24,000 nt of DNA from Candidatus Heimdallarchaeota archaeon (GTDB taxonomy: Archaea > Asgardarchaeota > Heimdallarchaeia > Heimdallarchaeales > Kariarchaeaceae). Shown here piece after piece: positions 1,012-23,275 of the stretch. A program made the translations under genes and the position numbers. The DNA lies in contig JAOUKW010000003.1 of the NCBI GenBank assembly GCA_029882335.1, positions 6,383-30,382 on the forward strand, in the 5' to 3' direction. Numbering within the stretch: position 1 is the stretch's first letter; each line of letters opens with the position of its first letter. The notes under the pieces are model-generated. The model saw only the letters and a list, made by a program, of their open reading frames with translations, did no database searches and was not told where the DNA came from.

Positions 1012-2652
1012 ATGACAACCAAATATGAAATTGATAAAATCCTTAGTAAATTTAATGAAACTACTCCCGGATGCGCCGTTGGTGTTTTTCAGAAAGGTGA
1101 AGTAATTCACGCTAAAGGATATGGTAGGGCAAATCTTGAGTATAATCAACCAATAAATACCAATTCTGTATTTAGGATTGCTTCTTTATCCAAACACTTT
1201 ACTGCGTTTTGTGTTTATATTCTTATCAAAGAGAAAAAAGTAAGCCTTGAAGACGATATAAGAAATTATTTTTCTGAAATGCCTAAATATGATGAAATAG
1301 TAAAAATAAAGGATATTATTAACCATCGAAGTGGCATTCGTGACTATCTTAGTCTGTATTTCTCTGCTGGTAGGACTCCAAGAGAATTTGATACTCAATC
1401 ATTTGATGATTTACTTAATCTGATTACAAGACAAAAAGGATTGAATTATTCACCTGGAAGTGAATTTCTTTACTCGAACTCAAATTACCTATTACTTGCC
1501 GAACTTATTAAAAGAGTTTCAGGATTAACACTTCGCGAATTTGCTGAAGCAAGATTATTTAAACCTCTGGGGATGTCAAGTACTCATTTTCATGATAATT
1601 ATTTAGAAATTGTTCCAAATAGGGCTACTGGGTATAGAAAGACAAAAGATGAAACATTCGAAATTTGTGAGACAACTTCAGATATCATTGGAGATGGTGG
1701 GATATTTACATGTATTGATGATTTGTTCAAATGGTCGCAGATATTTCAATCTAATCTGTTATTTTCTTCAGAAGAGTTGCCACAACTGCTTTATCCAGAT
1801 TGGGAAAGAATAAATGAACAAGGCGATATCTATGGTTATGGGTTGAATCTGAGTACATATAAAAACAACAAGGTCATTCGCCATGCAGGAGGATTTGTTG
1901 GGTTTCAAACAAATTTCTTATTTTTCCCCGAGAAAGATCTTAGTATTTATATTTTGGGAAATTATGGAAATACAAATATAGTTGAGCTTGCTTATCCAAT
2001 AGCTGATTTATTTTTGAGCCAAGACGATTTGAATCATGATCTTGGGTCAGATAAAACCGAAGATAAAATTGAGCAAGACATAAATCTAGATCATGACTGG
2101 ATTGCATCATATTTTGGTTATTATCATCGAATTACAGAATTATATCAGTTTTTAATAAACGAGGAAGAAAGTAAGAAATATCAACTTATAGTAAATGGAG
2201 GGTGGTTTTCTTTTGATCTTATTCCAATTGGGTCAAATAAATTTAAATCAACAACTGGGATTTATCCCATTGAATTAGAACTAAGAGAGATAGAAAATAA
2301 GAAAATACTTCAGGTTAAAATACTAGGATCCGGTTCAATCATCAAATATTCATCAATAGATCCTTTTATACCTGAAAAAGATACATCAAGCTCGTTTTTA
2401 AAAAATTTCACCGGAAAATATTACAGTGAAGAATTGGACGCATCTTGTTACATTAATGTTGAGGATGATAAATTAATACTTCATAGAATGAGAGATGAAA
2501 ATAGGTTATTATTTCTTACCGCGGATACTACATTAACAGTAAAAGATGGTTGTGAGCTTCAGTTCAAACAAGAAAATGGAAAAATAATTGGATTTACGTT
2601 TTCTACATTTCGTATGAGAGGGATTCAGTACAAAAAAGAAGGTTTCAGTTAA
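1012..2652 (+). CDS. Serine hydrolase of the beta-lactamase/PBP fold (MEROPS S12-like, D-aminopeptidase/esterase type)
   Basis: 546-aa ATG ORF. The catalytic motifs occur in the expected order: SxxK (ASLSKHF), YxN (YSNSNY), and HxG in the KTG position (RHAGGFVG). A ~200-aa C-terminal extension follows the catalytic fold. No signal peptide is visible. Confidence 0.85.
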   Translation: MTTKYEIDKILSKFNETTPGCAVGVFQKGEVIHAKGYGRANLEYNQPINTNSVFRIASLSKHFTAFCVYILIKEKKVSLEDDIRNYFSEMPKYDEIVKIKDIINHRSGIRDYLSLYFSAGRTPREFDTQSFDDLLNLITRQKGLNYSPGSEFLYSNSNYLLLAELIKRVSGLTLREFAEARLFKPLGMSSTHFHDNYLEIVPNRATGYRKTKDETFEICETTSDIIGDGGIFTCIDDLFKWSQIFQSNLLFSSEELPQLLYPDWERINEQGDIYGYGLNLSTYKNNKVIRHAGGFVGFQTNFLFFPEKDLSIYILGNYGNTNIVELAYPIADLFLSQDDLNHDLGSDKTEDKIEQDINLDHDWIASYFGYYHRITELYQFLINEEESKKYQLIVNGGWFSFDLIPIGSNKFKSTTGIYPIELELREIENKKILQVKILGSGSIIKYSSIDPFIPEKDTSSSFLKNFTGKYYSEELDASCYINVEDDKLILHRMRDENRLLFLTADTTLTVKDGCELQFKQENGKIIGFTFSTFRMRGIQYKKEGFS

Positions 2653-3475: not shown

Positions 3476-5371
3476 TTATTTATTTGAATTTTTTTTAACG
3501 ATAGGTAGCAAAACAATGATTGAAAGCAATGTAGCAAGGCTAGTAAATCCATATGTTTCAACTGCACTAGAACTTAATATTTGAGAGGGCGATGATGGTG
3601 TTTCTGGGTCATCTACTTCGACAGAAACAAGATCCCATTGTTGGAGATTTTGACTTAATAGTTGAAAATCTAATCCAACAATTGAGCTATTATATAACCA
3701 ATGATGTTGACGAGATGCAATTGGAATTACTGGTTTCCATTCAGCCAAAAAGGATTGAATTTGCTGCAATAAATTAATTCTAGTTGCAGTATCAATTGCA
3801 ACCTGATAATCAGCGACTAAACCCGTAATTTCTTGGTTTGCAAAGTTATACCAGTTATCACAAGTACCAGTGTCACAGAGACCATTGGTGTCAAATAAGT
3901 ATTGTGGATTATAGTCTAATGGCCATCCATATGCTATAAAGAATATATCATATCCACCATCATCCCATAATGGAACTAAAGATGCATCTTGCCATCCAAA
4001 TGTTCTAGGAATAATTTCATCCCATCCTTGGCTAACTATTTCAGTAACACCAATACCGATCTTTGGTAGGTCTTCCTCAAAAATATTATGCCAATAATTT
4101 CTCATGGCACAATCTATATATCGTAATAAAGTCACATTAAAAAAGAAAGTGTTGTATGTGTCAGAGGTTTGATTATAAATAAGTGTTGAATAATCGAAAC
4201 CAGCGGAATTCATTAATGATCTGGCTATTTCAATATTGAATGGATCAGGTGATATTGTGTTGTCCAATCCTGTTGTAGTGGGAGGTATTGGTGTTGATAA
4301 TGGTATTGCCAAATTATCAAATATTTCTGAAATGATATAACTTCGGTTCAAAACATGTGACATGGCATTTCTAACTGATTTAGCACCCATAATTCTATCC
4401 TCTGTAGTGGCTGTAGTTCCTAATGGAAGTCCTTCTCCAGTTCCATACATGGGGTGAATATTATTAAGTGCCATCTCAATTGTCTCTGACGTATTTGAGG
4501 TTTTAGAAGTAAATTTTGTAGTATCATATGAATTATCAAGTGGTATCAAATATTTATGGTCAATTAAATCAATATTGCCAGATGTAGTTTCAGTTAATAT
4601 TTGACCATTGAGAATTTGCTTAAAGATTATTTTATCAAAATAAACAGAATCAGAAGAAAAGTAGTTGTTATTTTTAATTAGAGTGACAATTTTATTTTGT
4701 AAATCGATTGTGTCTACTTTATATGGTCCACCGCCAGTTATATCTGCACCTGATGGATCATTCCAACTACAGTCATCAGCCATATATACATCATTTGCTT
4801 TACAAATATCCCATTTAGAGCTAAAATAAATTTGATTGAGAATTGGTATAGATAATGCTCGAATATTAAATGCATGTATTTGATTAAATTCAATTCTGAC
4901 TGTTAAATCATCAACTTTAACAACTGAGTTTATAGAGAAATCATCGATTAATAATTTTAAACTTGTTATATTAAAAATTGGGTCTAGTAGTATTTCATAG
5001 GTAAAAATAACATCATCTGCAGTAAAAGGAGTTCCATCTTCAAATAACATTCCTTGTTTTATAGTTACAGTGTAGTTCTTTCCATCCGGAGTTATACTAA
5101 GTGTATCCGCAAACCATTCTGTTAATTCTCCGTTATTGGATGAATCTGGTCTAAATAACGATGCACTTACAGCATTCATTATGCGAAAATCAGCCCGGGT
5201 GTTGTCTCTTATGTCTGTTAAATAGGAAAATTCATAAAAATACGATGGAGATGTATATACAAATTCCCTATCATCCTCTTGCAACGATATTGAAGTATCT
5301 GATATGACAAAATTAGATACAAAGATTAATATTATTACATATAAGCTAAAAGTAATTTTAATAGATTTCAT
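3476..5371 (-). CDS. Extracellular solute-binding protein, family 5 (peptide/nickel/opine type), with C-terminal membrane anchor
   Basis: 631-aa ATG ORF with an N-terminal signal peptide (MKSIKITFSLYVIILIFVSNFVIS). It has the family-5 SBP signature region (WFADTLSITPDGKNYTVTIKQGMLFEDGTPFTADDVIFTY). The C-terminus is a Ser/Pro linker, then YGFTS, a hydrophobic helix and KKNSNK. It is paralogous to 11974..13905 and to the pseudogene at 10613..11848. Confidence 0.85.
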   Translation of the reverse strand: MKSIKITFSLYVIILIFVSNFVISDTSISLQEDDREFVYTSPSYFYEFSYLTDIRDNTRADFRIMNAVSASLFRPDSSNNGELTEWFADTLSITPDGKNYTVTIKQGMLFEDGTPFTADDVIFTYEILLDPIFNITSLKLLIDDFSINSVVKVDDLTVRIEFNQIHAFNIRALSIPILNQIYFSSKWDICKANDVYMADDCSWNDPSGADITGGGPYKVDTIDLQNKIVTLIKNNNYFSSDSVYFDKIIFKQILNGQILTETTSGNIDLIDHKYLIPLDNSYDTTKFTSKTSNTSETIEMALNNIHPMYGTGEGLPLGTTATTEDRIMGAKSVRNAMSHVLNRSYIISEIFDNLAIPLSTPIPPTTTGLDNTISPDPFNIEIARSLMNSAGFDYSTLIYNQTSDTYNTFFFNVTLLRYIDCAMRNYWHNIFEEDLPKIGIGVTEIVSQGWDEIIPRTFGWQDASLVPLWDDGGYDIFFIAYGWPLDYNPQYLFDTNGLCDTGTCDNWYNFANQEITGLVADYQVAIDTATRINLLQQIQSFLAEWKPVIPIASRQHHWLYNSSIVGLDFQLLSQNLQQWDLVSVEVDDPETPSSPSQILSSSAVETYGFTSLATLLSIIVLLPIVKKNSNK

Positions 5372-10612: not shown

Positions 10613-11848
10613 ATGAGATATTTTTTGTTATTCTCCGTTTTTATGGTGATAACAATATTAATCACTGCAAATGAGAACTTATATAATTCAAATCAATCAG
10701 AACAAATTTTATATCAGACCACAACTCTTACATATGCGTTACCTTATGATTTTGCTGAATTTGGTTATTTTACTGCATACTCTATGCAACACAACAATGG
10801 CTGTCTGCAATAGGTGTGTCTTTATTTAGATATGATGCAAGTAATGACAGATTAATGACTCCTTGGTTTGCAGAAAGCTATGAAATTAGTACAGATGGTA
10901 AGAATTATACTGTTACTATCAAACCTAGAATGAAATTCCAAGATGGGAGTCCATTTACTGTAGATGATGTTGTATTTTCCTACAAAGTTTACTATCATGA
11001 CTTTTTTGATGATGCAGACGGCATCATGAACAACGAATCAGTTCATAAAATTGATGCAAGATCATTGATGATGTCTGTAGGCTTTGATTATAATGATTTA
11101 ATCTACAATTTAGATACCGATACCTATAATTCATACTTCTTCAATGTAACATTGTTAAGTCCTAGTTCTAGTCCTATCAGACATATATGGTCCGTCTATT
11201 TAGATCAATCATTACCAAAGATAGGTATTGGTGTAACAGAACATGTTAATACCGGATGGGGTGAAATTGTTCCCCGAACTTTTGGATGGTCTTCAAATAC
11301 ATTAGTGCCATTATGGGATGACGGTGGTTATGATATTTTCTTTATTGGATATAGATGGTCATTTGACTATGATCCACAGTACTTATATGATACCTATGGG
11401 CTTTGTGACACCGGTTCATGTGATAACTGGTATAACTTTGTAAACACTATAATTACTGATCTCGTAGATTTATATGTACGAGAGTTAGATAATAATGCAA
11501 GAATTACATTAGCTCACCAAATTCAAGATTTCTTGAAAGTATGGAGACCTGTTATTCCTAGCATTTACCCACAACCCACGGGGCTATAATAAAAATTTAA
11601 CAGGTATTGATGGAATTTTACTCTCCAGCTCAAACCAACAATGGGATCATTTAGGATTTATTCCCTATACTCCTTCAATAAGTGACTCTCCTACTTCTAG
11701 TAATGATATACTAAATAATATTACACCTACTCCAAAAAATCATAATTCTGATAGTTCAAATGAAGGATTTTTGGATGGATTTTCATTTCTTATTGTAATG
11801 TCAACTTTGTTCATATGGACTGTGAGATACTACAAAAGAAGGAAATAA
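10613..11848 (+). pseudogene. Decayed family-5 solute-binding protein gene (paralogue of 11974..13905)
   Basis: Alignment by eye to the intact neighbour shows three lesions. (1) A 1-nt deletion near 10782 (tcatatgcaac becomes tctatgcaac) causes a frameshift and a TAG at 10811. (2) An in-frame loss of 681 nt (227 codons) has its junction at 11053/11054, equals intact 12436..13116, and is flanked by 'atg' microhomology. (3) Two 1-nt losses near 11573..11580 lead to TAA TAA at 11587. The reading frame then resumes in another frame (NLTGIDGILLSSSNQQWD...) through a linker, DGFSF, a TM helix and YYKRRK, with the stop at 11846..11848. ORF-track entries 10586..10813 and 10816..11589 are its fragments. 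Confidence 0.85.
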
Positions 11849-11973
11849 ATTATCTGGAAATCATAATTTAACAATTTTTTATAATTGTATATGAATGAAA
11901 TAAATTGAAAGGGTTGTCCAAAACTAATCTTTTATTAACAATTATTTATATAATTGTTATCTATGTTCTCTGT

Positions 11974-13905
11974 ATGAGGTACAATCTCAATCTCCGTAAA
12001 TTATTATTTGGTATAATGATTATGACTTTATTAATCATGTCCAATAATAATGTCATAAGTATAGATCAATCCAGTATTGGATTAACTCAAAATCCTACAA
12101 CAACGCTTACACATGCGTTACCGTATGATTTTACTGAATTTGGTTATTTTACAGCATACTCATATGCAACACAACAATGGCTGTCTGCAGTACGTGCGTC
12201 TTTATTTAGATATGATGCAAGTAATGACAGATTAATGACTCCTTGGTTTGCAGAAGGCTATGAAATTAGTTCTGATGGTAAGAATTATACAGTTACTATC
12301 AAAGCAGGAATGAAATTCCAAGATGGAAGTCCATTTACTGCAGATGATGTTGTCTTTGCGTATGGCGTTTATTACCATGACATTTTTGGTGGTGCAGACG
12401 GCATCATGAACAACGAATCAGTTCATAAAATTGATGATTTAACCGTTAAGTTTGATATGATGCAAGCATATGCATTTGGTGTTAGTTACTTAAGTAAACC
12501 GATACTTAATGAAGCATATTTTGGACCTAAATGGGCTGCATGTGTTGCAAATGGTGCAACCGTAGAGGCTGATTGTTTATGGGATGATCCAAGTGGTGTT
12601 GATGCACATGGAGGAGGACCATATATGGTTCAATCAATTGATATCACAACTGATGTTGTGACCCTAGTTAAAAATCCCCACTACTTTGATGCTTCTAATG
12701 TTTATTTTGATGAACTTGTTTTTAAAAAGAATTCTAACCCAATTGACGCAATAAATGCTCTTGCAGCTGGTGATATTGACATCATAGATTCTCAATTTGT
12801 ACCTCCATTAGAGGCATTTAATGAATTTGATAATGTTGCATCTTTGAGAGTAACAGATCCTGCTACCCAAGAAATTTCTTTAAATCATCTACATCCGATG
12901 TATGGTACCGGTGAAGATTTACCACTTGGTTCAACCATAACATCTGCAGTAGAAGGAGCAAAAGCAGTTAGAGAGGCTATGTCCAGCGTTCTTAACAGAG
13001 AATCTCTTATAGAAGAAATTTTTGAAGGAAGGGCATTACCCGCAGCTACAGTTGTGCCGGCTACAGCTACTGGTTGGAATCCAAACTTAGCATTTGATCC
13101 ATATGATGTTGCACATGCAAGATCACTGATGGAATCTGTGGGATTCAATTACGGCAATTTAAACTATAATTCCATCAATGATGAATATACATCTTTCTTC
13201 TTCAATGTAACATTGTTGAGTGCTAATACTAGTCCTAGTAGAAATTTATGGCCTGTCTTTTTTGAACAATCCTTACCAAAGATAGGTATTGGTGTAACCG
13301 ATCATGTTAGTACCGGATGGGCAGAAATAAATCTCAGAACATTTGGGTGGTCTTCAAATACATTAGTACCATTATATGATGATGGTGGTTATGATGTATT
13401 TTTTGTAGGATATGGATTTCCATTAGACTATGATCCACAATACATATTTGATACTAATGGTCTATGTGACTCTAGTGGACCTGGAGCATGTAAAAACTGG
13501 TATAACTTTGTAAACCAAGAAATTACTGATCTAGTAGATTTATATGTAAGAGAATTAGATGGTAATACAAGAATTACCTTAATTGGTCAAATTCAAGATT
13601 TCTTGAAAGCATGGAGACCTGTTATTCCTAGCATTTACCCACAATCCCACTGGGGACATAATGTTAATTTAACCGGTATAGATGGAATTTTACTCTCTAC
13701 ATCAAACCAACAATGGGATCAAGTGAAGGTTCAAGACTTAATTCCTCCTCCTTCTAACAATTCCTCAACACCAGTAAATCAGACATCTGATAATTCGGTT
13801 GATAATGGAGATTTAGATGGATTTTCATCAATTCTGGTATTATCAAGCATGTTTGTAATGACCGTGTTATACCGAAAAAAATGGACAAATAAGTTGAAGA
13901 TTTAA
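11974..13905 (+). CDS. Extracellular solute-binding protein, family 5, with C-terminal membrane anchor
   Basis: The ORF-track start at 11905 is TTG. ATG 11974 gives a signal peptide (MRYNLNLRKLLFGIMIMTLLIMS) that parallels the pseudogene's MRYFLLFSVF. The family-5 signature is WFAEGYEISSDGKNYTVTIKAGMKFQDGSPFTADDVVFAY. The tail is a Pro/Ser/Asn linker, LDGFSS, a TM helix and RKKWTNKLKI. Confidence 0.85.
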   Translation: MRYNLNLRKLLFGIMIMTLLIMSNNNVISIDQSSIGLTQNPTTTLTHALPYDFTEFGYFTAYSYATQQWLSAVRASLFRYDASNDRLMTPWFAEGYEISSDGKNYTVTIKAGMKFQDGSPFTADDVVFAYGVYYHDIFGGADGIMNNESVHKIDDLTVKFDMMQAYAFGVSYLSKPILNEAYFGPKWAACVANGATVEADCLWDDPSGVDAHGGGPYMVQSIDITTDVVTLVKNPHYFDASNVYFDELVFKKNSNPIDAINALAAGDIDIIDSQFVPPLEAFNEFDNVASLRVTDPATQEISLNHLHPMYGTGEDLPLGSTITSAVEGAKAVREAMSSVLNRESLIEEIFEGRALPAATVVPATATGWNPNLAFDPYDVAHARSLMESVGFNYGNLNYNSINDEYTSFFFNVTLLSANTSPSRNLWPVFFEQSLPKIGIGVTDHVSTGWAEINLRTFGWSSNTLVPLYDDGGYDVFFVGYGFPLDYDPQYIFDTNGLCDSSGPGACKNWYNFVNQEITDLVDLYVRELDGNTRITLIGQIQDFLKAWRPVIPSIYPQSHWGHNVNLTGIDGILLSTSNQQWDQVKVQDLIPPPSNNSSTPVNQTSDNSVDNGDLDGFSSILVLSSMFVMTVLYRKKWTNKLKI

Positions 13906-14078: not shown

Positions 14079-14175
14079 TGGGCCACGTCAGATTCGAACT
14101 AACGACCTCCCGGTTTCTAAGCTCAATATTTTGAGATATCAGCCGAGCGCTCTAACCAAGCTGAGCTAGTAGCCC
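14079..14175 (-). tRNA. tRNA-Ile (anticodon GAU) with ~22-nt intron at the canonical 37/38 position
   Basis: In the reverse complement: acceptor GGGCTAC/GTGGCCC; D arm GCTC-AGCTTGGTTA-GAGC; anticodon stem CTCGG/CCGGG; loop CTGATA with GAT; variable AGGTC; T arm GTTAG-TTCGAAT-CTGAC; discriminator A; no encoded CCA. The insert TCTCAAAATATTGAGCTTAGAA allows a near-canonical bulge-helix-bulge. The central helix is CTGA/TTAG, flanked by 3-nt bulges that contain both junctions, and the inner helix is CTCAA/TTGAG. Confidence 0.9.
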
Positions 14176-14512: not shown

Positions 14513-15760
14513 TTAATCTGTTGTTTTTGTTGGTTTTGATTTTTTAGTTGTAGATCCGTTGGTAATGTCTGCTAATGATATATCTGCTTCTTTTAATGCA
14601 TTAATTCCAGAAATTAGATCCGAATAGAAACTATTTGAGGATAAAAATAACTTAGAGTTCTTTTCAATTCCTTTTGAGATTTGTTCTGCAACCTTTACCT
14701 GTGTATCTGCATTGATTTCTGCAATCTTTACACCAATACCTTCTTTGTTGAAAGATTTAATTGCTTCTGCAAGAGCTTTTGTACCCTCTGCTTCTGCAAG
14801 TAATTTTAGCTTAATAGCTTCTGCTTCCGCTTGAGCTCTAATTCGAATTGCTTCAGCCTCTGATCTAGCTTTAATTAGTTGTGCTTCAGATTCTCCTTTG
14901 GCAATTTCCATTTGTCTTTCAGATTCAGCTAGCGTATCAATTTTTAATTTTTCTGATTCAATTTCTGCAGTACGTCTGATTTCAGCATTCTTTATATCCA
15001 TTTTTCTTAGTGTTAACTCTTTATTTTCAACTGCAATGAATTTTTCCTGTTCTAATCTTGCTGCTTCTGATTTTTGAAGTGCTTGTTGTTTTTGTACTTC
15101 TGCTTCAGAAATCTTTTGTGCTTCAATAATTTCAGCTTGTGTACTTTGTTCAGCTTCAGCAATTCTTGCTAATTTGGTTAATTCTGCCGATTTCACCCTT
15201 TCCATATCCGAAATTACTGTGCTACCCGGAACATCAACAATATCTCTGATGTCAAATATTAATACTTTAACACCTAATCTAGATAATGATTCTGCTGTAG
15301 ATTTATAGATTGCTGTTTCAATCTCATCTCTTTCTCTCATGATAGTTGTTAATTCTAATCTCATTGCCTCAGATCTTGCCGCTGCTTGTATGGTATCGTC
15401 AACTATTGGTTTGATTTCATTTGCAGTAGCTTTTCCTAGGGTTTGGACGGCAGTTTTTGCATCAGAAACTTGGACTTTACAAGATATTTCAACGGCAAAT
15501 GGTAAGTTAGAAGAATCTAGTAGTTTGATTCTTTGAACAGCAATTTCTATTACGCTTGTTGAAATTATATTTTTCTTATGTATAAGTGGAAAATATCTAT
15601 ATGATTGCCCACCATTAAACATTTTTATTTTACCTCTACCGGATATAACGTGTACTTCATCTGGTTTTACAACGTTATATGTTGTATATAGTATATATCC
15701 AATTGCAACAATAATTCCTGTAAACAGAAATCCAATTGTTGTTACATCTAATTGTGCCAT
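14513..15760 (-). CDS. Flotillin-like SPFH/band-7 domain membrane scaffold protein
   Basis: 415-aa ATG ORF. It has an N-terminal TM hairpin (TTIGFLFTGIIVAIGYILYTTY) and an SPFH core (VHVISGRGKIKMF...FAVEISCKVQV...). A long Glu/Ala-rich coiled coil follows, with flotillin-type EA repeats (RSEAEAIRIRAQAEAEAIKLKLLAEAEGTKALAEA). Confidence 0.9.
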   Translation of the reverse strand: MAQLDVTTIGFLFTGIIVAIGYILYTTYNVVKPDEVHVISGRGKIKMFNGGQSYRYFPLIHKKNIISTSVIEIAVQRIKLLDSSNLPFAVEISCKVQVSDAKTAVQTLGKATANEIKPIVDDTIQAAARSEAMRLELTTIMRERDEIETAIYKSTAESLSRLGVKVLIFDIRDIVDVPGSTVISDMERVKSAELTKLARIAEAEQSTQAEIIEAQKISEAEVQKQQALQKSEAARLEQEKFIAVENKELTLRKMDIKNAEIRRTAEIESEKLKIDTLAESERQMEIAKGESEAQLIKARSEAEAIRIRAQAEAEAIKLKLLAEAEGTKALAEAIKSFNKEGIGVKIAEINADTQVKVAEQISKGIEKNSKLFLSSNSFYSDLISGINALKEADISLADITNGSTTKKSKPTKTTD

Positions 15761-15765
15761 TTATT

Positions 15766-15770
15766 TCACC
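15766..15770 (-). promoter_or_regulatory. Shine-Dalgarno motif (GGTGA) coupling the NfeD-RING and flotillin genes
   Basis: The minus strand reads TAA-GGTGA-AATAA-ATG. The upstream stop (15771..15773) is followed immediately by GGTGA, and the flotillin ATG lies 5 nt later. GGTGA matches the GGAGGTGATC-type anti-16S motif. Confidence 0.6.
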
Positions 15771-16472
15771 TTATGATATATTTACAATATTATTTGCGTC
15801 AAATTGTAGTATTGCTTTACAATTTGGACAAACATTCCTAATTTCTAGCCAAGCTTTCAAATGTTCGATATGAGCATTGTAATTACATTGTGGACAAGAA
15901 CTTGAATTTTCAAGGATGCCAATATCTGCAAAACAGATCATACAAAACTTATCTTTTGATTTTTTTCTAATAAATTTAATAATTTTTGAGTAAGATTTCT
16001 TCTCTGAAGGTTTGTTGATTTTAAAATTTGAATTGAATTCATAGACTTGTGCATATACTCCATTGAAGTGCGAAATTACCACCTTTGTCCACTTTGGAAT
16101 TGTGTTTATTTCGTTATCAATGCCTTCTGCAACAAAATATTCTCTTCCATTATCTGTTTCAAGTATTATTTGTCCCTTCTTACCTGGATTTATTGGAATA
16201 TCTACAATCGCAATTTTTCCTATGGATTGATCATAAATATCCTTGGGATCGTTGATTTGTAGAAAAATTATACCTAGCAATCCAGATACAATTAATCCAA
16301 TAATAAATGCGTTGATACTTTCTGTGTTATTATATCCTAGAATACCCCAAACAAATAGAAAGATAGGCCAATCTATCGGTAAATTAGAAAGTGGTAAGGT
16401 GAAGTTGTATTTTTCTTTTGCTATTGCTACTATAATCGCAACAACAATTAAAAACAAATAAAAGATGCTCAT
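15771..16472 (-). CDS. NfeD-family membrane protein (3 TM + OB-fold) fused to a C-terminal RING/PHD-type zinc finger
   Basis: 233-aa ATG ORF with three N-terminal hydrophobic helices. An NfeD C-terminal-domain-like beta segment follows (GKIAIVDIPINPGKKGQIILETDNGREYFVAEG...WTKVVISHFNGVYAQVYE), then a Lys-rich linker. The finger is C177-x2-C-x12-C-x2-C-x4-H-x2-H-x10-C-x2-C218 (nt 15819..15944) and includes HLKAWLEIRNVCPNCK. The gene sits directly upstream of an SPFH gene, which is the conserved NfeD position. Confidence 0.8.
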   Translation of the reverse strand: MSIFYLFLIVVAIIVAIAKEKYNFTLPLSNLPIDWPIFLFVWGILGYNNTESINAFIIGLIVSGLLGIIFLQINDPKDIYDQSIGKIAIVDIPINPGKKGQIILETDNGREYFVAEGIDNEINTIPKWTKVVISHFNGVYAQVYEFNSNFKINKPSEKKSYSKIIKFIRKKSKDKFCMICFADIGILENSSSCPQCNYNAHIEHLKAWLEIRNVCPNCKAILQFDANNIVNIS

Positions 16473-16680: not shown

Positions 16681-17436
16681 CTAAATTGTTTTATTCTCTT
16701 TATAATTTGTTGAATTAAGAGGCATAAATGCAATAAAAATTGCAGCAGGATTATCCATTGATTGATCTTCATCAGGTTGATTCTGTGTAAAATATGGATT
16801 CAGTACATCTAAGTAAAATTTGGATAGTTTGGATTTAACCTCTTTATGATTCCGCAGATTGAAAATGTTTTGTAAGAAAAATGTGTTTTCAATATATGAT
16901 TGTCCGATGTAAGCTGATTTGTTTTCTTCGATGTAGTCTGAAATAATCTCTGTTATCATTTTAATAAATCCTAAAGATGAATAATTTGCAAATGATAGAT
17001 AAGATGATATCAAGTCATATTTGTTTTTGATAATTAGATATTCAACAAATTTGGTATCAAAGCTGGGATCGCTGATTCGGTTATTCACACTATAGTAAGC
17101 ATTTCTTGGTTCTTCGTGATTTCTTTCCTTCTTGATAAGACCTGCATCTGAAAGTGCTTTTAATGAACGAAAGAGTGATTTTTCACCTTTTAAATTTAAT
17201 TTATCCTTTAAATTGCTTGTTTTCATTTTACCATTAATATTAAGGTGGATCATAATTTTATTACAAGAATCCCATCTGAAAACTTGAATTAATTTATTCA
17301 TATATTCAATTCGTTGTTCAAAGTCTTCTATTTCTTCTTTAGTAAAATTAAGTAAAACCATTATATGTCTAATACTATTGAATATTTCTAGATATAAAAA
17401 TTTAAGTATCATATTATGGTACTTTGTATATATCAT
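16681..17436 (-). CDS. Winged helix-turn-helix (ArsR/MarR-like) DNA-binding protein with an uncharacterised C-terminal domain
   Basis: The wHTH-like segment is WDSCNKIMIHLNINGKMKTSNLKDKLNLKGEKSLFRSLKALSDAGLIKKERNHEEPRNAYYSVN, followed by ~130 aa I cannot identify. Start is uncertain. ATG 17436 lies only 25 bp from the divergent gene. The internal ATG 17361 (MVLLNFTKEE...) has TTTTTATATC ending ~29 nt upstream and may be the real start. Confidence 0.6.
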   Translation of the reverse strand: MIYTKYHNMILKFLYLEIFNSIRHIMVLLNFTKEEIEDFEQRIEYMNKLIQVFRWDSCNKIMIHLNINGKMKTSNLKDKLNLKGEKSLFRSLKALSDAGLIKKERNHEEPRNAYYSVNNRISDPSFDTKFVEYLIIKNKYDLISSYLSFANYSSLGFIKMITEIISDYIEENKSAYIGQSYIENTFFLQNIFNLRNHKEVKSKLSKFYLDVLNPYFTQNQPDEDQSMDNPAAIFIAFMPLNSTNYKENKTI

Positions 17437-17461
17437 TTTATAATATCATGAGTTGAAAATT

Positions 17462-19150
17462 ATGAATAATATTGATAATAAAATAATTAATCAAATTTCC
17501 ACTTACCTTCAACGGGTTGTTCCTTTTGGCTTTAATGGCGTTTTTTTACTGGCAAAAAATGATCAAATTCTATTTCACCAAGGATTTGGATATCGAAATA
17601 TTGCTAAACAATTACCTATGTCCCTGAAAACCTCCTTAGGGATTGGGAGTATAAGTAAGCAATTTACCTCTGCTTTGATTATGAAATTGAGTGAAAAAGG
17701 ATTGCTACAAACTGGGGATCGTTTGGTAAATTATTTTAGAAATTTTTCAGAAGACAAGCAGAATATTACTATTCATCAATTACTTACACATACAAGTGGT
17801 TTACCATCTGATATTGATGGAGTGGATGATTTTACTCCGATATTAACAGATGATTTTTTGAAAAAAGTAAATTCTCTTGAATTGAGAAGTTCACCTGGTA
17901 CTGTTTTTCGATATAGTAATATCGGATATTCAATCCTAGCGATATTAATTTCTAAATTAGTGGGTAAATCATTCCAAAAATATTTACTGGATGATATATT
18001 AGCTCCATTAGATATTCACCAGGTAGGATGGTTTGGAGATCCCAAATGGACGATTGAAAATTCGTCTAGTTATTATAATGAGGGAAAATGTACTGGTTCT
18101 CCATATGAATGGGATGGATCATGGCAGCAAGATTACTGGGGTATATTAGGTAATGGAGGTTTGATTTTAATGGCCGAAGATTTGTATAAATGGATGTTAC
18201 ATCTGTTTTCCAATAAATTTCTTAATTCAAATTCTATGAATACTATGCTGACACCTGAATTGAATGATTATGGATATGGCTGGGATGTGACAGAAGATGA
18301 GCTAGGAAAAGTCATCATGCATGATGGGGGAAGTACGTTGGGGATTAATGCTTTGGCTAAATATTATCCAAAAGAAGATATTTACTATATTCTATTGGGA
18401 AACACTCGATTTGATAGAAGGGGTGTGGTCTTTCATTTAGATCCTGTAATAAAGTCTATATTTATGAATAAATATGTTCAATTACCACCGAAAGTTGAGT
18501 ATCATTCTTGTTTTGATTATTCAATTGCACAACAAAATTACAGATTTAATATTGATTCAGATAATTTTGGTCAGATAATAACCAATAATGAGAATGCGAT
18601 AGTTATTTCATTAAATGGACAACAAATTATTAATAACTTATTTTTTAGCTCTCCCGATAGTATTTTACAAATCGATCAAATTAAACATTATAATGAACGA
18701 GTAATTAATTTTGGAAAGTATTGTTTGAATCAAGATTGGCAAGCTGCTTTTCTGTTAATGAAAAATCCTTTGAATTATGAACATAGGGTTGATATTTTGG
18801 AACATTTACTTCAGTCATTTACTAGTCAAAATGGAGAGATAGTAAACTTATCAACAACGACAATTCCCTCTAAGGACTATTTTGCCACCACTTATTTGGG
18901 ATTAATTAGTACGAAAAAAACTCAATTTATTGCTTTTGTTTGGGAAAAACCGGGGATTTTACTTGGATTTAGACCTGGTCTGACTGATTGGATAACTTCA
19001 TTTATTTGTTACAACACTGTTGACAATAAAATTATCGGGTATAATATTGCAACTCAATTTCAATTCGAAGCTTTGATTAGTGATAATATATTATTAATGA
19101 ACTCATTAAAAATACCTCTAGAAATTGAAGATAACAATAAATTTTCTTAA
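17462..19150 (+). CDS. Serine hydrolase of the beta-lactamase/PBP fold (S12-like), paralogous in architecture to 1012..2652
   Basis: The ORF-track start at 17453 is TTG; ATG 17462 is preferred. Motifs are SxxK (GSISKQF), YxN (YSNIGY) and HxG (MHDGGSTLG). A ~230-aa C-terminal extension follows, and no signal peptide is seen. Confidence 0.85.
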   Translation: MNNIDNKIINQISTYLQRVVPFGFNGVFLLAKNDQILFHQGFGYRNIAKQLPMSLKTSLGIGSISKQFTSALIMKLSEKGLLQTGDRLVNYFRNFSEDKQNITIHQLLTHTSGLPSDIDGVDDFTPILTDDFLKKVNSLELRSSPGTVFRYSNIGYSILAILISKLVGKSFQKYLLDDILAPLDIHQVGWFGDPKWTIENSSSYYNEGKCTGSPYEWDGSWQQDYWGILGNGGLILMAEDLYKWMLHLFSNKFLNSNSMNTMLTPELNDYGYGWDVTEDELGKVIMHDGGSTLGINALAKYYPKEDIYYILLGNTRFDRRGVVFHLDPVIKSIFMNKYVQLPPKVEYHSCFDYSIAQQNYRFNIDSDNFGQIITNNENAIVISLNGQQIINNLFFSSPDSILQIDQIKHYNERVINFGKYCLNQDWQAAFLLMKNPLNYEHRVDILEHLLQSFTSQNGEIVNLSTTTIPSKDYFATTYLGLISTKKTQFIAFVWEKPGILLGFRPGLTDWITSFICYNTVDNKIIGYNIATQFQFEALISDNILLMNSLKIPLEIEDNNKFS

Positions 19151-19330: not shown

Positions 19331-21238
19331 TTATTTTGACATTTTGGTTTTCTTTCTTAGAAACCAAGTGATTACTGGTATCAAAAGAAGAGTAGTTGCA
19401 TTGAACTCAACAATTCTCGGTTCTGATATACCTGATGTGGAGGAGTTAGTTATATCCCTTGATGTCAAACTTCCAAACTCAGAAACATAATTATATGGAT
19501 TATTTATTACATTATGTGCATGTTGAATTATAGTATAACTTTCTAAATATAATTTTTGAGCATGAAGTGACATGGCATTCAAGTATAATTCATCTAAATA
19601 TGGTAAAAGATCCGGAAATGTTGATCCCCAATGAGTATATGCCTCTGTATATGCATTATATAGTGTAAAAATTATTTTATCTAAATTTCTTCTCCAGAAG
19701 GCTTGCGAAATTAAAACAGAAAAATTCGCTGTACCTGGATAATAACCCATTACATCGGAAATAAAATCGGATACAAATGAATTTCCAAATGTATGTGGCA
19801 GTCCGATGGAATGTCCAATTTCATGTATTAGTACTTTGCTTAATCCTGCTTTATGGGTGGTTCCATCTGGCATGAATGCCCGATCTAATTCCCATAACAT
19901 AGTTACAATTCCATTTCCTCCAAGCCCGGTATAAAGGCCTCCTGTCCAAGGTATCCAACTGTCTCCTGCGTAACTCGCATTATCAAGAAGGAGTATCAAT
20001 CCTTTAATTGGTAGAGTTGCATCTGTTCTTTCAAAATAATTACCGCGTAAAATACTATTACTGAATATCTCACCCCAGAGTTGATCTCCATTATAAAATC
20101 TCCAATTTTCAAAAGGTGGATCGATCCCTTGGTATGCACTATAATCTATTTCTGCATTTTCTATCAAATCTTTAAGAAACGTATCATTATTTATATCATA
20201 ATAATTAACTACAAATTCAATATTTGTTGAATTTGCTATGTAACCTAATTTATCAATTGATAATTGTTCATTAATTATCCATCGTAATTCTTCTTCACTT
20301 TTTTGTGTGCTATTATATACAACAATGGTTTGTGAATTGACATTTTCTCTTAGATTAATCCCTTCTCCAAATAAACCCATGCCGTATATATTTTCCAGCC
20401 AATCAGTAATCCATTTAGATGTTGTATCAGTAACAATTGGTCTCGCATTTGATGGTGTTTCATTGTTAATGAGCTCTGTTAAGGTATTGTCATAAGATGG
20501 GTGATAAATTGTATTATCATTCCAAATACTTCTCCAATTTAACACCCATTGAAATGATGTTGGATCTAAAATTGCAACATCCGTTTGTTCACTGAATGCA
20601 GCATAAGGGAATTTTACATCATAGTTCAATGGGTAGTCCCATTCTAATCTCCAGTAAAATCTTGAAGACATGGAATCTGGATCTATTTCTGTTGCATTTA
20701 ACCAGTGTTTATTGGTACCAATATCCAACCTAGATAAATTGAATACAAACATATGATATAAATTATTATCATTTAAATTCGTTGATGGTTTGTTTGCAGA
20801 TAAATATTGTTCTAATAATCTAGCATCTATTGCTTTTCCATTTTGCTGTTCAAAAATATCCTTTCTCACAAAGTTTACTTTTTGTTCATTAATTGCTGTT
20901 TCATTAAGTTTAGAAGTCCAGTCATCGGTTGTAATGGTATCAATATATGCATTTAATTGGTCCGTATAAGACTGATCTGGTACTTGTAAATCCAAGATTA
21001 CATCATAATTCAAATCTCCATAGTAATTATAAAAGTATGTAAATTGTAATTGTGATCTAATTGAGTTTAAATCTAAAAGACTAGTATCAAAATTTATGAA
21101 ATTAATTGAAATATTCATCTCTATATCAACTTCTGGTAAAACTGGTGTTACAAGGACTGAATTCGTATTAATTGGTGCGAATGCAAAAATAATAAGAATA
21201 AGGAGAGTTTTACTTATATTTATATTCATCTGAATCAT
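19331..21238 (-). CDS. Secreted, C-terminally anchored metzincin-type zinc metalloprotease (HExxHxxGxxH + Met-turn; M43/M10-like motif)
   Basis: The ORF-track start at 21241 is TTG and the adjacent ATG is at 21238. The signal peptide is KTLLILIIFAFAPINTNS. The zinc motif LIHEIGHSIGLPHTFGN (nt 19792..19824) is followed by a SDVMGYY Met-turn candidate. About 450 aa precede the motif. The C-terminus is a TM helix followed by RKKTKMSK. The protein contains no cysteine. Confidence 0.85.
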   Translation of the reverse strand: MIQMNINISKTLLILIIFAFAPINTNSVLVTPVLPEVDIEMNISINFINFDTSLLDLNSIRSQLQFTYFYNYYGDLNYDVILDLQVPDQSYTDQLNAYIDTITTDDWTSKLNETAINEQKVNFVRKDIFEQQNGKAIDARLLEQYLSANKPSTNLNDNNLYHMFVFNLSRLDIGTNKHWLNATEIDPDSMSSRFYWRLEWDYPLNYDVKFPYAAFSEQTDVAILDPTSFQWVLNWRSIWNDNTIYHPSYDNTLTELINNETPSNARPIVTDTTSKWITDWLENIYGMGLFGEGINLRENVNSQTIVVYNSTQKSEEELRWIINEQLSIDKLGYIANSTNIEFVVNYYDINNDTFLKDLIENAEIDYSAYQGIDPPFENWRFYNGDQLWGEIFSNSILRGNYFERTDATLPIKGLILLLDNASYAGDSWIPWTGGLYTGLGGNGIVTMLWELDRAFMPDGTTHKAGLSKVLIHEIGHSIGLPHTFGNSFVSDFISDVMGYYPGTANFSVLISQAFWRRNLDKIIFTLYNAYTEAYTHWGSTFPDLLPYLDELYLNAMSLHAQKLYLESYTIIQHAHNVINNPYNYVSEFGSLTSRDITNSSTSGISEPRIVEFNATTLLLIPVITWFLRKKTKMSK

Positions 21239-21382
21239 CAATAACCTTTAATTATAAATATCAATTCATTTAACTTCAATAAATTTATTTTAATATCGTT
21301 TATTTTTTTTTTATTTTGCTGAGTAATTTAAAATCTAAATTGTAAAATCAGGATAAAAATTTATAGAATACTCATGAATTTA

Positions 21383-23275
21383 TTAAAATTTTCTTTTTTT
21401 AATTAATTTAATTGTTATTATAGGAATTAATACTAATAAACTGAAACCGAAATTGTGAGTTAGTTCCTCTTCTTTTGAATTTGGAATTATAAAATCATTA
21501 GAGAATTCGGATGAGTACTCAGAAACAGAAGTATATTGCTCCGGAAAGTTTAATACATGTAGTAGATGTTCTATCATTGGTATTAATTCTAAATATTTTT
21601 TCTGTGCGTGTATTTCCATTGCAAGTTTGTAATTTTCAAAAACGTAACTAACTATATTGGGGTAATAATTGGTATAATCCAAATATGTTTCTTGATATCT
21701 TGTTAATAGTTCTTGTATCTTATTATCCACATTTCTTCTCCAAAAACTTTGAGAAATTAAAGTTGAGAAATTTGCTGTACCTGGATAATAGCCCATTACA
21801 TCGGAAATAAAATCTGATACAAATGAATTAGTAAATGTATGTGGCAACCCGATGGAATGTCCTATTTCATGGATAAGTACTTTACTTAATCCTGCTTTAT
21901 GGGTTACGCCATTTGGCATGAATGCACGATCCAATTCCCATAACATGGTAACAATGCCACCACCACCTAAACCTGTAAATAACCCTCCCGTCCATGGAGT
22001 TAGTGAGGGAGAATCAGATGCATAACTTGCATTATCCAAGATCAGTATTATTCCCTTAACTGGAATGTCTGCTGTACTGTCAATGAAATAATTATTATTC
22101 AATTCAGAATTTACAACGACTGCATTAAATAAATCAATCCCATCATAATAGGTCCAATTTTCAAATGGTGGTGTTCCATAAACCGATTGATAATCTATTT
22201 CTGCATTTCTCAGGATGTTTTGAAGAACATGATCTGATTTTACATCATAATAATTGACTATGATATCAACATCAGTTGAGTTTGCTATAAATCCCAATTC
22301 ATCAGAAACTAATTGTTCATTAATAATCCATTCAATTTCACTTCTGCTCTTTTGACTGCTGTTATATCCAACAATAAACTGAGCATTTGTAGATCCTCCT
22401 AGTTTTGGTTCGTCACCCATCAATGACATTCCATAAATGCGATTTAACCAATCTCCAACCCATTTAGAAGTAGTATCTGTTACCGTATTTCTGGCTTGTT
22501 CTATTGTTTGAGAAGTTATTAGTTCTGTCAGAGTTTTATCGTAGGATTGGTGATATACCGTATCGGTATTCCAGTATCTTCTCCAATTCAATACCCATTG
22601 AAATGAAGTTGGGTCTATGATTGCTATATCTGATTGTTCACTAAATGCAGCATAAGGGAATTTAACATCATAATTCATTGGGTAATCCCATTCTAATCTC
22701 CAGTAAAATCTCGAGGACATGGAATCTGGATCAATCTCAGTTACATTTAACCAATGTTTATTTGCTCCAACATCCAATCTAGAAAGATTAAATACAAAGA
22801 TGTGATATAAATTATTGTCATTGAGAGTTGTTGTAGGTTTATTATTTGAAAGATATTGTTCTAATAGTCTAGCATCAACTGCTTTTCCATATTGTTGTTC
22901 GAAAATATCCTTTCTAGTAAACTCTGCTCTTTGTTCTAATATTGCTGTTTCATTTAGTCTAGAAGTCCAGTCCTCAGAGGTAATGGTATCAATATAATTA
23001 TTTAATGATTCAGTATAATCCTGATCTGGTGTGTTTAATTCAAAAATAATATTATATTCTGTTGATCCATAATTCCTGTATAATTGTGTGTTTTCAAAAT
23101 TTGATTGGAGCGCAGTCAAATCTAACAGATTTAGGTCAAAATTAATGAAATTAATTGCTATATTCATTTCTGCCAATAGTGGTAATGTTTCAGTTGGTTC
23201 CTGTGAATTGATTTTTGGTGTTGATGTGGTGATCAAAAAAATGATTACAAGCAATCGCAAATTTTTTTTATCCAT
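21383..23275 (-). CDS. Secreted, C-terminally anchored metzincin-type zinc metalloprotease, tandem paralogue of 19331..21238
   Basis: 630-aa ATG ORF with a signal peptide (LRLLVIIFLITTSTPKINS). It has the identical LIHEIGHSIGLPHTF motif (nt 21839..21871) and SDVMGYY. It is colinear with the downstream paralogue over the full length. The tail is NFGFS, a TM helix and KKRKF. The protein contains no cysteine. Confidence 0.85.
   Translation of the reverse strand: MDKKNLRLLVIIFLITTSTPKINSQEPTETLPLLAEMNIAINFINFDLNLLDLTALQSNFENTQLYRNYGSTEYNIIFELNTPDQDYTESLNNYIDTITSEDWTSRLNETAILEQRAEFTRKDIFEQQYGKAVDARLLEQYLSNNKPTTTLNDNNLYHIFVFNLSRLDVGANKHWLNVTEIDPDSMSSRFYWRLEWDYPMNYDVKFPYAAFSEQSDIAIIDPTSFQWVLNWRRYWNTDTVYHQSYDKTLTELITSQTIEQARNTVTDTTSKWVGDWLNRIYGMSLMGDEPKLGGSTNAQFIVGYNSSQKSRSEIEWIINEQLVSDELGFIANSTDVDIIVNYYDVKSDHVLQNILRNAEIDYQSVYGTPPFENWTYYDGIDLFNAVVVNSELNNNYFIDSTADIPVKGIILILDNASYASDSPSLTPWTGGLFTGLGGGGIVTMLWELDRAFMPNGVTHKAGLSKVLIHEIGHSIGLPHTFTNSFVSDFISDVMGYYPGTANFSTLISQSFWRRNVDNKIQELLTRYQETYLDYTNYYPNIVSYVFENYKLAMEIHAQKKYLELIPMIEHLLHVLNFPEQYTSVSEYSSEFSNDFIIPNSKEEELTHNFGFSLLVLIPIITIKLIKKRKF

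Follow-up and report, generated by a model that had tools for sequence, protein, structure and literature searches.

A short-form NfeD protein ending in a RING-type zinc finger, encoded beside a flotillin gene in a Heimdallarchaeial archaeon

The gene pair and the domains of its upstream product

The DNA analysed here (the window) is a stretch of 24,000 nucleotides (nt) of contig JAOUKW010000003.1, from Candidatus Heimdallarchaeota assembly GCA_029882335.1, with a base composition of 30% G+C (70% A+T in the region). Within positions 14513–16472 it carries two open reading frames (ORFs), co-oriented on the minus strand. The upstream ORF encodes a 233-residue protein in which an NfeD-like membrane portion is followed by a RING-type finger (NfeD-RING), and the downstream ORF a 415-residue flotillin-type protein (Table 1). 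The two genes form a predicted SPFH–NfeD operon of a Heimdallarchaeial (Asgard) archaeon, with the junction TAA-GGTGA-AATAA-ATG and a spacer of 10 nt. The positions and lengths of both ORFs, the string of zinc ligands and the GGTGA lying between the stop codon and the flotillin ATG all agree with a preliminary description of this DNA. In the databases the 233-residue protein has only one identical entry, a 'hypothetical protein' that is truncated and belongs to a Candidatus Heimdallarchaeota metagenome-assembled genome (MAG). A generic RING/PHD regular expression matched the six-frame translation of the window once and none of 200 shuffles, and a DNA back-translation of H-x2-H-x3-W-[LIV]-x5-C-P-N-C likewise gave one match in the window and none in 100 shuffles.

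Table 1. Positions of the features discussed, in the window and in other loci (labelled L).
Feature	Stretch	Positions	Strand	Basis
NfeD-RING fusion gene, 233 residues	window	15771..16472, stop codon included	(-)	ORF list and translation, homologues, AlphaFold model
Membrane region, residues 1–75, three helices	window	16248..16472	(-)	hydrophobic stretches and model
NfeD-type OB β-barrel, residues 85–147	window	16032..16220	(-)	model, Foldseek and Pfam of relatives
Lys-rich flexible linker, residues 148–176	window	15945..16031	(-)	composition and low model confidence (pLDDT)
RING finger core, residues 177–218, eight predicted zinc ligands (C4H2C2)	window	15819..15944	(-)	pattern, conservation, profiles
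C-terminal tail, residues 219–233, K219 at presumed 'linchpin' position, two short strands	window	15774..15818	(-)	alignment and model
GGTGA, Shine-Dalgarno-like motif between the genes	window	15766..15770	(-)	junction sequence
Flotillin-type SPFH gene, 415 residues	window	14513..15760	(-)	ORF list and Pfam
Winged-helix protein gene, 251 residues	window	16681-17436	(-)	Pfam
tRNA	window	14079-14175	(-)	Rfam
Two beta-lactamase-family proteins, ~550 residues	window	1012-2652, 17453-19150		Pfam
Two full SBP_bac_5 solute-binding proteins and a 257-residue ORF	window	3476-5371, 10816-11589, 11905-13905		Pfam
Two tandem ~630-residue proteins, weak metallopeptidase (M10/M12) motifs	window	19331-21241, 21383-23275		Pfam
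DUF7121 coiled-coil gene, ~300 residues	L001; L002	4954-5853; 5000-5941
Ras/Arf-like GTPase	L005; L006; L007; L008; L009	7599-8156; 4070-4618; 1306-1860; 6372-6938; 7002-7550
Recurrent genes for ~260- and ~740-residue proteins	L006; L007; L008	7150-7947, 8184-10427; 4027-4809; 12185-12964, 15180-17408
The same, continued	L009; L005; L010	1743-3968, 4008-4811; 8349-10562; 4209-4910
Tandem arrays of RING-tailed genes	L062; L126	3-2375; 3313-6513
The same, further loci	L089, L092, L098, L099, L105, L107, L122
E2 gene of Heimdallarchaeaceae	L127	5001-5468

The 415-residue protein had been taken for a flotillin/SPFH protein, and the profile and structure-database searches bear this out. Pfam detects Band_7 (9.7e-22) with a weak Flot match (0.0017), and the best relatives of solved structure are human flotillin-1 (1.3e-13) and flotillin-2 (7e-12), followed by QmcA. 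With an N-terminal membrane anchor, a Band_7 domain and a long Ala/Glu-rich coiled coil, the protein is of the flotillin type. Its score on the NCBIfam FloT equivalog is 52 bits against a cut-off of 700, too far under the threshold for a FloT orthologue.

An exhaustive HMMER search of 1.8 billion representative sequences returned about 20 full-length relatives of NfeD-RING (229–272 residues, 24–33% identity), and 18 sequences were aligned. The AlphaFold model built with this family alignment has a mean predicted local distance difference test (pLDDT) of 83, whereas the single-sequence model (pLDDT 46.7) was uninformative. Hydrophobic stretches at residues 1–22, 31–45 and 51–75 and modelled helices at 2–22, 35–47 and 52–73 are consistent with the three transmembrane helices noted previously. 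The strands of an OB barrel lie within residues 87–145 (pLDDT about 90). They are followed by the linker, which was also described as Lys-rich at the outset: the 30 residues 147–176 include 10 Lys and 1 Arg, and the model is disordered at residues 157–173 (pLDDT < 50). A compact C-terminal domain stands after this disordered stretch.

The top Foldseek matches of the model in the PDB are all NfeD proteins. The best is YbbJ of the E. coli QmcA–YbbJ complex (8z5g_AA, E 8e-5), whose alignment, at 160 columns, takes in both the helices and the barrel. B. subtilis YuaF (2k14, E 6.5e-4) and P. horikoshii PH1510-C (3wwv, TMt 0.87, root-mean-square deviation (rmsd) 1.4 Å) were also found, and the OB domain further matches 3cp0 (TMt 0.82) and 2exd. 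At the level of sequence, Pfam NfeD (PF01957) matches 7 of the 18 family members at E<=0.1 (best 5.5e-5), and the family profile reaches the PH1510-C sequence with an E-value of only 0.35 in the PDB sequence search. The model thus supports the view that the N-terminal two thirds of the protein are a short-form NfeD. The NfeD-type OB segment of the preliminary description stands by fold and by relatives, although not by the protein's own profile score: PF01957 gives no match to the 233-residue protein alone at E<=1, and for that reason the assignment is drawn from the other two sources.

The C-terminal domain carries eight potential zinc ligands, spaced C177-x2-C-x12-C-x2-C-x4-H-x2-H-x10-C-x2-C218, and all six cysteines and two of the three histidines of the protein fall inside this string. 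Residues C177, C180, C196, H201, H204, W208, C215, P216 and C218 are invariant in the 18 sequences; seven ligands are among them, and the eighth (C193) is shifted by two positions in three of the sequences. On alignment with RING-H2 fingers, C196 corresponds to ligand 3 and H201 to ligand 5, Y198 occupies the place of His-4, and H204 replaces Cys-6. Because C196 aligns with ligand 3 and Y198 lies at His-4, C193, three residues before C196, would be the substitute fourth ligand.

Profile and fold comparisons both point to a RING. The zf-RING_2 profile matches 18/18 family members (best 7.9e-8) and Prok-RING_1 matches 8; on the 233-residue protein itself, zf-RING_2 aligns over profile positions 3–44 of 44. 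Searched singly, the protein has RNF24 and EL5 as its closest PDB sequence relatives. With the family profile, the first forty matches among PDB sequences are catalytic RING-H2 ligases (1e-9 to 1e-4), headed by RNF165/ARK2C (1.3e-9) and continuing with Arkadia, EL5, RNF4, RLIM, RNF38, gp78, listerin, ZNRF3 and Hrd1. Likewise, Foldseek matches the modelled tail to RING and U-box folds, including TRIM37, Rad18, RNF38, RNF126 and RNF165 with probabilities of 0.97–1.00, and RNF165 superposes with a template modelling (TM) score of 0.78 and an rmsd of 1.9 Å over 50 columns. Two short strands (221–225 and 228–231) complete the modelled tail. We infer a two-zinc cross-brace from this fold match, as the model itself holds no metal.

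Taken together, the modelled fold and the profiles support a RING rather than a PHD finger or a pair of ribbons. The label 'RING/PHD-type' used in the preliminary description accordingly survives in its first half (zf-RING_2 across the family, fold, family profile), while the second half finds no signal: PHD (PF00628) is not among the Pfam matches at E<=1 of the 233-residue protein, nor among the 25 most-matched Pfam families of the 18 members, nor in the PDB profile search. That description had staked its reading on a RING profile match and on a tail that would not model as simple ribbons or knuckles, and both were found; the resemblance it saw to a RING-H2 ending is also real, with a helix Trp, C-P-x-C and a basic residue after C8 in common.

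Conservation extends beyond the ligands. All 18 sequences have I, V or F at position 179, the hydrophobic site that follows C1, and all 18 have W208 and P216; position 219, directly after C8, is K or R in 16/18. Positions I179, W208 and P216 we take, from established knowledge of RING ligases, to be those that contact the ubiquitin-conjugating enzyme (E2), and position 219 to be the 'linchpin' that activates E2~ubiquitin. In the active RING of Caldiarchaeum subterraneum, an invariant Trp and loop hydrophobics have been named as the E2 interface (PMC5654768). The predicted E2-binding surface is conserved in the NfeD-RING family.

Relatives, flotillin linkage and the finger in ubiquitin operons

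Every homologue with a source name is annotated 'hypothetical protein'. By the available names (Heimdallarchaeota, Kariarchaeaceae) the family is apparently confined to Heimdallarchaeia, a taxonomic spread given by a handful of named MAG proteins. Thirteen NfeD-RING loci with readable flanks, the window included, were compared, and in six of them (the window and L005–L009) the next gene downstream, in the same orientation, encodes a flotillin, so that NfeD-RING genes adjoin SPFH genes outside the window as well. The spacers of the six pairs are 10, 135, 17, -1, 10 and 11 nt, all but one of them between -1 and 17 nt, and the flotillins of L005–L009 are 52–58% identical to the 415-residue protein of the window. 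A neighbour-joining tree of NfeD-RING falls into three groups: the flotillin-linked proteins, among which the window protein forms a separate branch; a clade in which no SPFH gene adjoins (L003, L004, L010, L011); and a clade (L001, L002) in which the next gene encodes a DUF7121 coiled-coil protein, not an SPFH protein. This DUF7121 protein has a weak match to the N-terminus of EXOC6/Sec15 (7e-5).

The same RING variant was found well outside the NfeD-RING family. Metagenome contigs were scanned with the back-translated H-x2-H-x3-W-[LIV]-x5-C-P-N-C motif, giving 109 stretches (L018–L126), and all ORFs of these loci were searched by phmmer with human ubiquitin, UBE2D2 and UBE2N. The motif is present in 117 ORFs of the fetched loci, 114 of which have the full eight-ligand pattern, and it nearly always lies 0–18 residues from the C-terminus. 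In their N-terminal regions these ORFs are diverse, with at least 15 unrelated groups, among them TPR and zinc-ribbon proteins and many without a Pfam match. The RING variant therefore looks, from its sequence contexts, like a portable C-terminal ubiquitin ligase (E3) cassette. Tandem arrays were also observed, in which two to three consecutive genes each end in the cassette and the RING-tailed paralogues measure about 300–430 residues.

In nine loci a RING protein of 77–87 residues is followed directly by a ubiquitin homologue and an E2, and its ligand spacing is identical to that of the window finger. The gene order in L124 and L056 is RING, ubiquitin, UQ_con, ThiF by Pfam, and the small RING proteins of these two loci score above the cut-offs on both Prok-RING_1 (44 bits, cut-off 29.1) and zf-RING_2 (33.5, cut-off 27.3). 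Across the RING domain, the small RING proteins of the operons align without gaps with residues 170–233 of the window protein, with 38–43% identity over the 42-residue core. A hidden Markov model of the operon small RINGs gives the window protein 46.2 bits, compared with 29.5 for RNF24, 26.5 for EL5 and 15.1 for RNF38. By these comparisons the window finger belongs to the archaeal small-RING-finger type (srfp, Prok-RING_1), and the small RING protein of C. subterraneum is an E3 shown by experiment (PMC5654768).

A search with an alignment of seven operon E2s returned relatives named Jord-, Frey-, Prometh-, Hel-, Odin-, Njord- and Thorarchaeota, together with others named Heimdallarchaeota, Heimdallarchaeaceae and Hodarchaeales. 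Since the relatives of their E2s carry Asgard names, the RING–ubiquitin–E2–E1 operons are assigned to Asgard archaea, and, judged by homology, Heimdallarchaeia themselves encode E2s of the operon type.

Several neighbouring genes recur at the flotillin-linked loci. Apart from the window, each locus with a flotillin-linked NfeD-RING gene encodes a Ras/Arf-like small GTPase (Ras 1.5e-40) no more than 4 kb from that gene; in L009 the GTPase gene begins 2 nt past the flotillin stop codon, on the opposite strand. Either simple synteny or a functional neighbourhood could account for this. Two proteins without a Pfam family, of about 260 and about 740 residues, recur beside the NfeD-RING/flotillin pair, and in L010 the gene for the ~260-residue protein is directly upstream of a flotillin-less NfeD-RING gene. 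No homologue of either protein was found in the window. A 766-residue protein encoded next to a Heimdallarchaeaceae E2 in L127 was considered as a relative of the ~740-residue protein and proved not to be homologous.

A possible regulator of the pair is a 251-residue winged-helix protein (HxlR 4.7e-5, weak TFIIE-alpha 3.5e-4), whose gene shares the strand of the NfeD-RING gene in the window and lies 208 nt upstream of it. About 340 nt downstream of the flotillin stop codon, Rfam reports a tRNA of 49.7 bits, covering model positions 1–71 of 71 over 97 nt. The surplus of ~26 nt points to an archaeal tRNA with an intron; ARAGORN found no tRNA anywhere in the window. Paralogues abound in the window, namely beta-lactamase-family proteins, solute-binding proteins and tandem proteins with weak metallopeptidase motifs (Table 1). 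The 257-residue ORF among them matches the first 48 SBP_bac_5 profile positions only and is possibly a fragment.

Proposed function and the alternatives to it

On the sequence, the model and the analogy with erlin–RNF170 in mammals, NfeD-RING is probably a RING E3 docked on flotillin. Its membrane helices and OB barrel would sit on the SPFH ring of the flotillin, as YbbJ does on QmcA, with the linker and the RING on the cytoplasmic side; this orientation is deduced from the basic character of the linker and from the reducing compartment that a zinc-thiolate domain requires. It would follow from such docking, with a cytoplasmic tail, that numerous RING domains extend from each flotillin assembly, each on a flexible tether some 30 residues long. 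QmcA–YbbJ is reportedly a 1:1 assembly of 26 heterodimers. The RINGs would then recruit ubiquitin-charged E2, and tagging would fall on membrane proteins held within or next to the microdomain, or on the scaffold, with the tagged proteins passing to proteasomal removal or to ESCRT-type sorting. In this way a holdase-like flotillin–NfeD platform of the bacterial kind would be coupled to ubiquitylation. In S. aureus, flotillin–NfeD captures and stabilises unfolded proteins (PMC11222466), and in mammalian endoplasmic reticulum (ER)-associated degradation erlin1/2 is partnered by the membrane RING ligase RNF170 (PMC12624060). A more far-reaching version, which we put forward tentatively and regard as possible rather than probable, is that Heimdallarchaeia have a dedicated platform for membrane-protein ubiquitylation, a flotillin cage in which each NfeD subunit presents a RING and from which captured proteins, once tagged, would be passed to the proteasome or to the Asgard ubiquitin–ESCRT route.

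A number of observations weigh against a flotillin-docked E3. Within the finger, the canonical His-4 is missing and an upstream Cys (C193) stands in its stead; three relatives, those of the DUF7121-linked clade among them, carry P-C-C in place of C-P-x-C at this ligand. The protein's own zf-RING_2 score of 21.7 bits is below the Pfam cut-off of 27.3, and the AlphaFold model contains no zinc. With regard to the genomic setting, no ubiquitin, E1, E2 or JAB gene lies within the 24-kb window, and no ubiquitin-system gene is next to any of the 13 NfeD-RING loci. In L127, moreover, a Heimdallarchaeaceae E2 of the operon type has no adjoining small RING or ubiquitin gene and lies next to queuosine-biosynthesis-like genes (radical SAM, GCHY-1, PTPS, QueC); because this E2 stands alone, the ubiquitin operon is not intact in all Heimdallarchaeia. 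The linkage to flotillin is itself partial, with 7 of the 13 family loci lacking an adjacent SPFH gene, and the OB and RING domains may sit either outside or inside the flotillin cage. Finally, other prokaryotic binuclear treble-clef fingers are reported to work with membrane peptidases and no ubiquitin (cited in PMC4506424).

Some of these points speak directly for the most serious alternative, that the finger is a non-catalytic zinc module acting without ubiquitin, as a peptide-binding, oligomerisation or adaptor domain for client holding or protease recruitment, in the manner of the B-box, AN1 and LIM fingers that in prokaryotes act together with membrane peptidases. The absence of ubiquitin-system genes near the NfeD-RING loci and the loss of His-4 would fit such a module, as would the B-box, a binuclear RING-like treble clef with a reported prokaryotic role in membrane-protein folding, stability and proteolysis (PMC4506424, citing Burroughs et al. 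2011). Weak double-zinc-ribbon matches (DZR 9e-4, and Zn_ribbon_6 in 9/18 members) point the same way, but they are weaker than those of zf-RING_2, which matches the whole family. Furthermore, the family keeps the E2-contact residues and not the ligands alone, the closest RING relatives are the small RINGs of ubiquitin–E2–E1 operons, and every top relative among PDB sequences is a catalytic E3. We consider this alternative unlikely, though it deserves to be taken seriously.

A plain zinc-ribbon reading was rejected on the fold match to RING and on the weakness of the ribbon profiles relative to zf-RING_2. The related proposal of a PHD-type reader, or of two independent zinc knuckles or ribbons lacking a cross-brace, is highly improbable. 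C-x2-C-x12-C-x2-C-x4-H does fit the first five PHD ligands, and the single-sequence model gives no guidance; ligand 6, however, is His, the second loop has 10 residues where PHD needs at least 12, and PHD is absent from the Pfam matches listed at E<=1, from the family's 25 most-matched Pfam families and from the PDB profile search, on which grounds the PHD reading was rejected. The Trp at the RING-H2 position, a fold that matches RING and U-box structures, and a profile that matches RING E3s only also stand against it.

It is also rather improbable that the protein is an E3 whose substrate is the scaffold, flotillin or NfeD, so that it would control the assembly or turnover of the microdomain and tag no clients. 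RING E3s commonly auto-ubiquitylate, and the 10 Lys of the 30-residue linker adjoining the RING would be an obvious acceptor; NfeD-RING, moreover, evolves fast, whereas the flotillin is conserved. However, a basic juxtamembrane linker is also expected from the positive-inside rule, and no sequence-level feature separates scaffold tagging from client tagging.

If a flotillin-docked E3 is indeed encoded here, SPFH–NfeD scaffolds and ubiquitylation, which have been studied separately, would be joined in the lineage nearest to eukaryotes. Ubiquitin, E1, E2, small RINGs and ESCRT are all present in Asgard archaea, while the targets and places of their ubiquitylation are largely unknown; the locus names one concrete and testable place, the flotillin microdomain. 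It also supplies a defined protein pair (233 and 415 residues) with residues C177, I179, W208 and K219 open to mutation, and the flotillin-linked and unlinked clades of the family form a natural comparison set. The occurrence of the RING cassette on at least 15 N-terminal architectures resembles the modular logic of eukaryotic E3 families, already in archaea.

Comparison with known systems

The pairing of SPFH and NfeD genes in operons is a described rule (PMC2636767), and the short-form NfeDs of E. coli (YbbJ–QmcA), B. subtilis (YuaF–FloT) and P. horikoshii (PH1510 C-domain–PH1511) resemble the window protein in their helices and OB barrel and in a gene lying just upstream of the SPFH gene and co-oriented with it. 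They differ from it in that the sequence similarity of the window protein to Pfam NfeD is marginal, and in what follows the barrel: known NfeDs stop at the OB domain or carry an N-terminal ClpP-like protease, whereas the window protein adds about 85 residues of linker and RING after it. To our knowledge, no NfeD has been described with a zinc finger. The preliminary description spoke of the NfeD effector being 'replaced' by a RING; a RING-like module is present, but it is appended to the C-terminus of a short-form NfeD, and the word is imprecise because the RING follows the OB domain and does not displace the ClpP-like protease found at the N-terminus of long forms. No paper combining NfeD, a RING finger and archaea was found in the library searched, the titles and abstracts of the 12 top-ranked among 45 papers mentioning both NfeD and RING gave no sign of such a fusion, and no mention of it was found in the Asgard surveys examined. 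With all named homologues 'hypothetical' and no matching paper found, the earlier remark that this is not a described family still applies. NfeD-RING is a new domain architecture made from two known modules, the SPFH-linked NfeD and the archaeal RING.

The srfp proteins of C. subterraneum and Asgard archaea (Prok-RING_1) are alike in their ligand spacing, which is identical, and in the helix Trp. They are, however, free-standing proteins of ~80 residues encoded beside ubiquitin, E2 and E1, while the window RING forms the C-terminal end of a membrane protein whose gene belongs to a flotillin operon and lies apart from ubiquitin genes. The eukaryotic RING-H2 E3s (RNF165/Arkadia, EL5, RNF24, RNF38, gp78, Hrd1) are the best sequence and fold relatives among solved structures and share with the window finger the hydrophobic residue after C1, the helix Trp, C-P-x-C and the basic residue after C8. 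They are C3H2C3 fingers, in contrast to the C4H2C2 arrangement of the window finger, in which ligand 4 is a Cys three residues before the usual place of ligand 3 and not a His after it, and ligand 6 is His where RING-H2 has Cys.

The closest functional parallel is with erlin1/2 and RNF170 of the mammalian ER, where an SPFH cage and a membrane-anchored RING E3 tag membrane proteins, which are then degraded (PMC12624060; also PMC13449098). RNF170 does not belong to the NfeD proteins, no operon encodes the partnership, and no NfeD homologue has been described in eukaryotes (PMC11222466); the resemblance is offered as a functional analogy, with no claim of homology. Were the platform proposed above real, it would be the first NfeD wired to a eukaryote-type ubiquitin system, and a prokaryotic forerunner, or an independent invention, of the SPFH-coupled E3 quality control seen in erlin–RNF170. 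The locus suggests that ubiquitin tagging was connected early with membrane microdomains, in a way hitherto undescribed.

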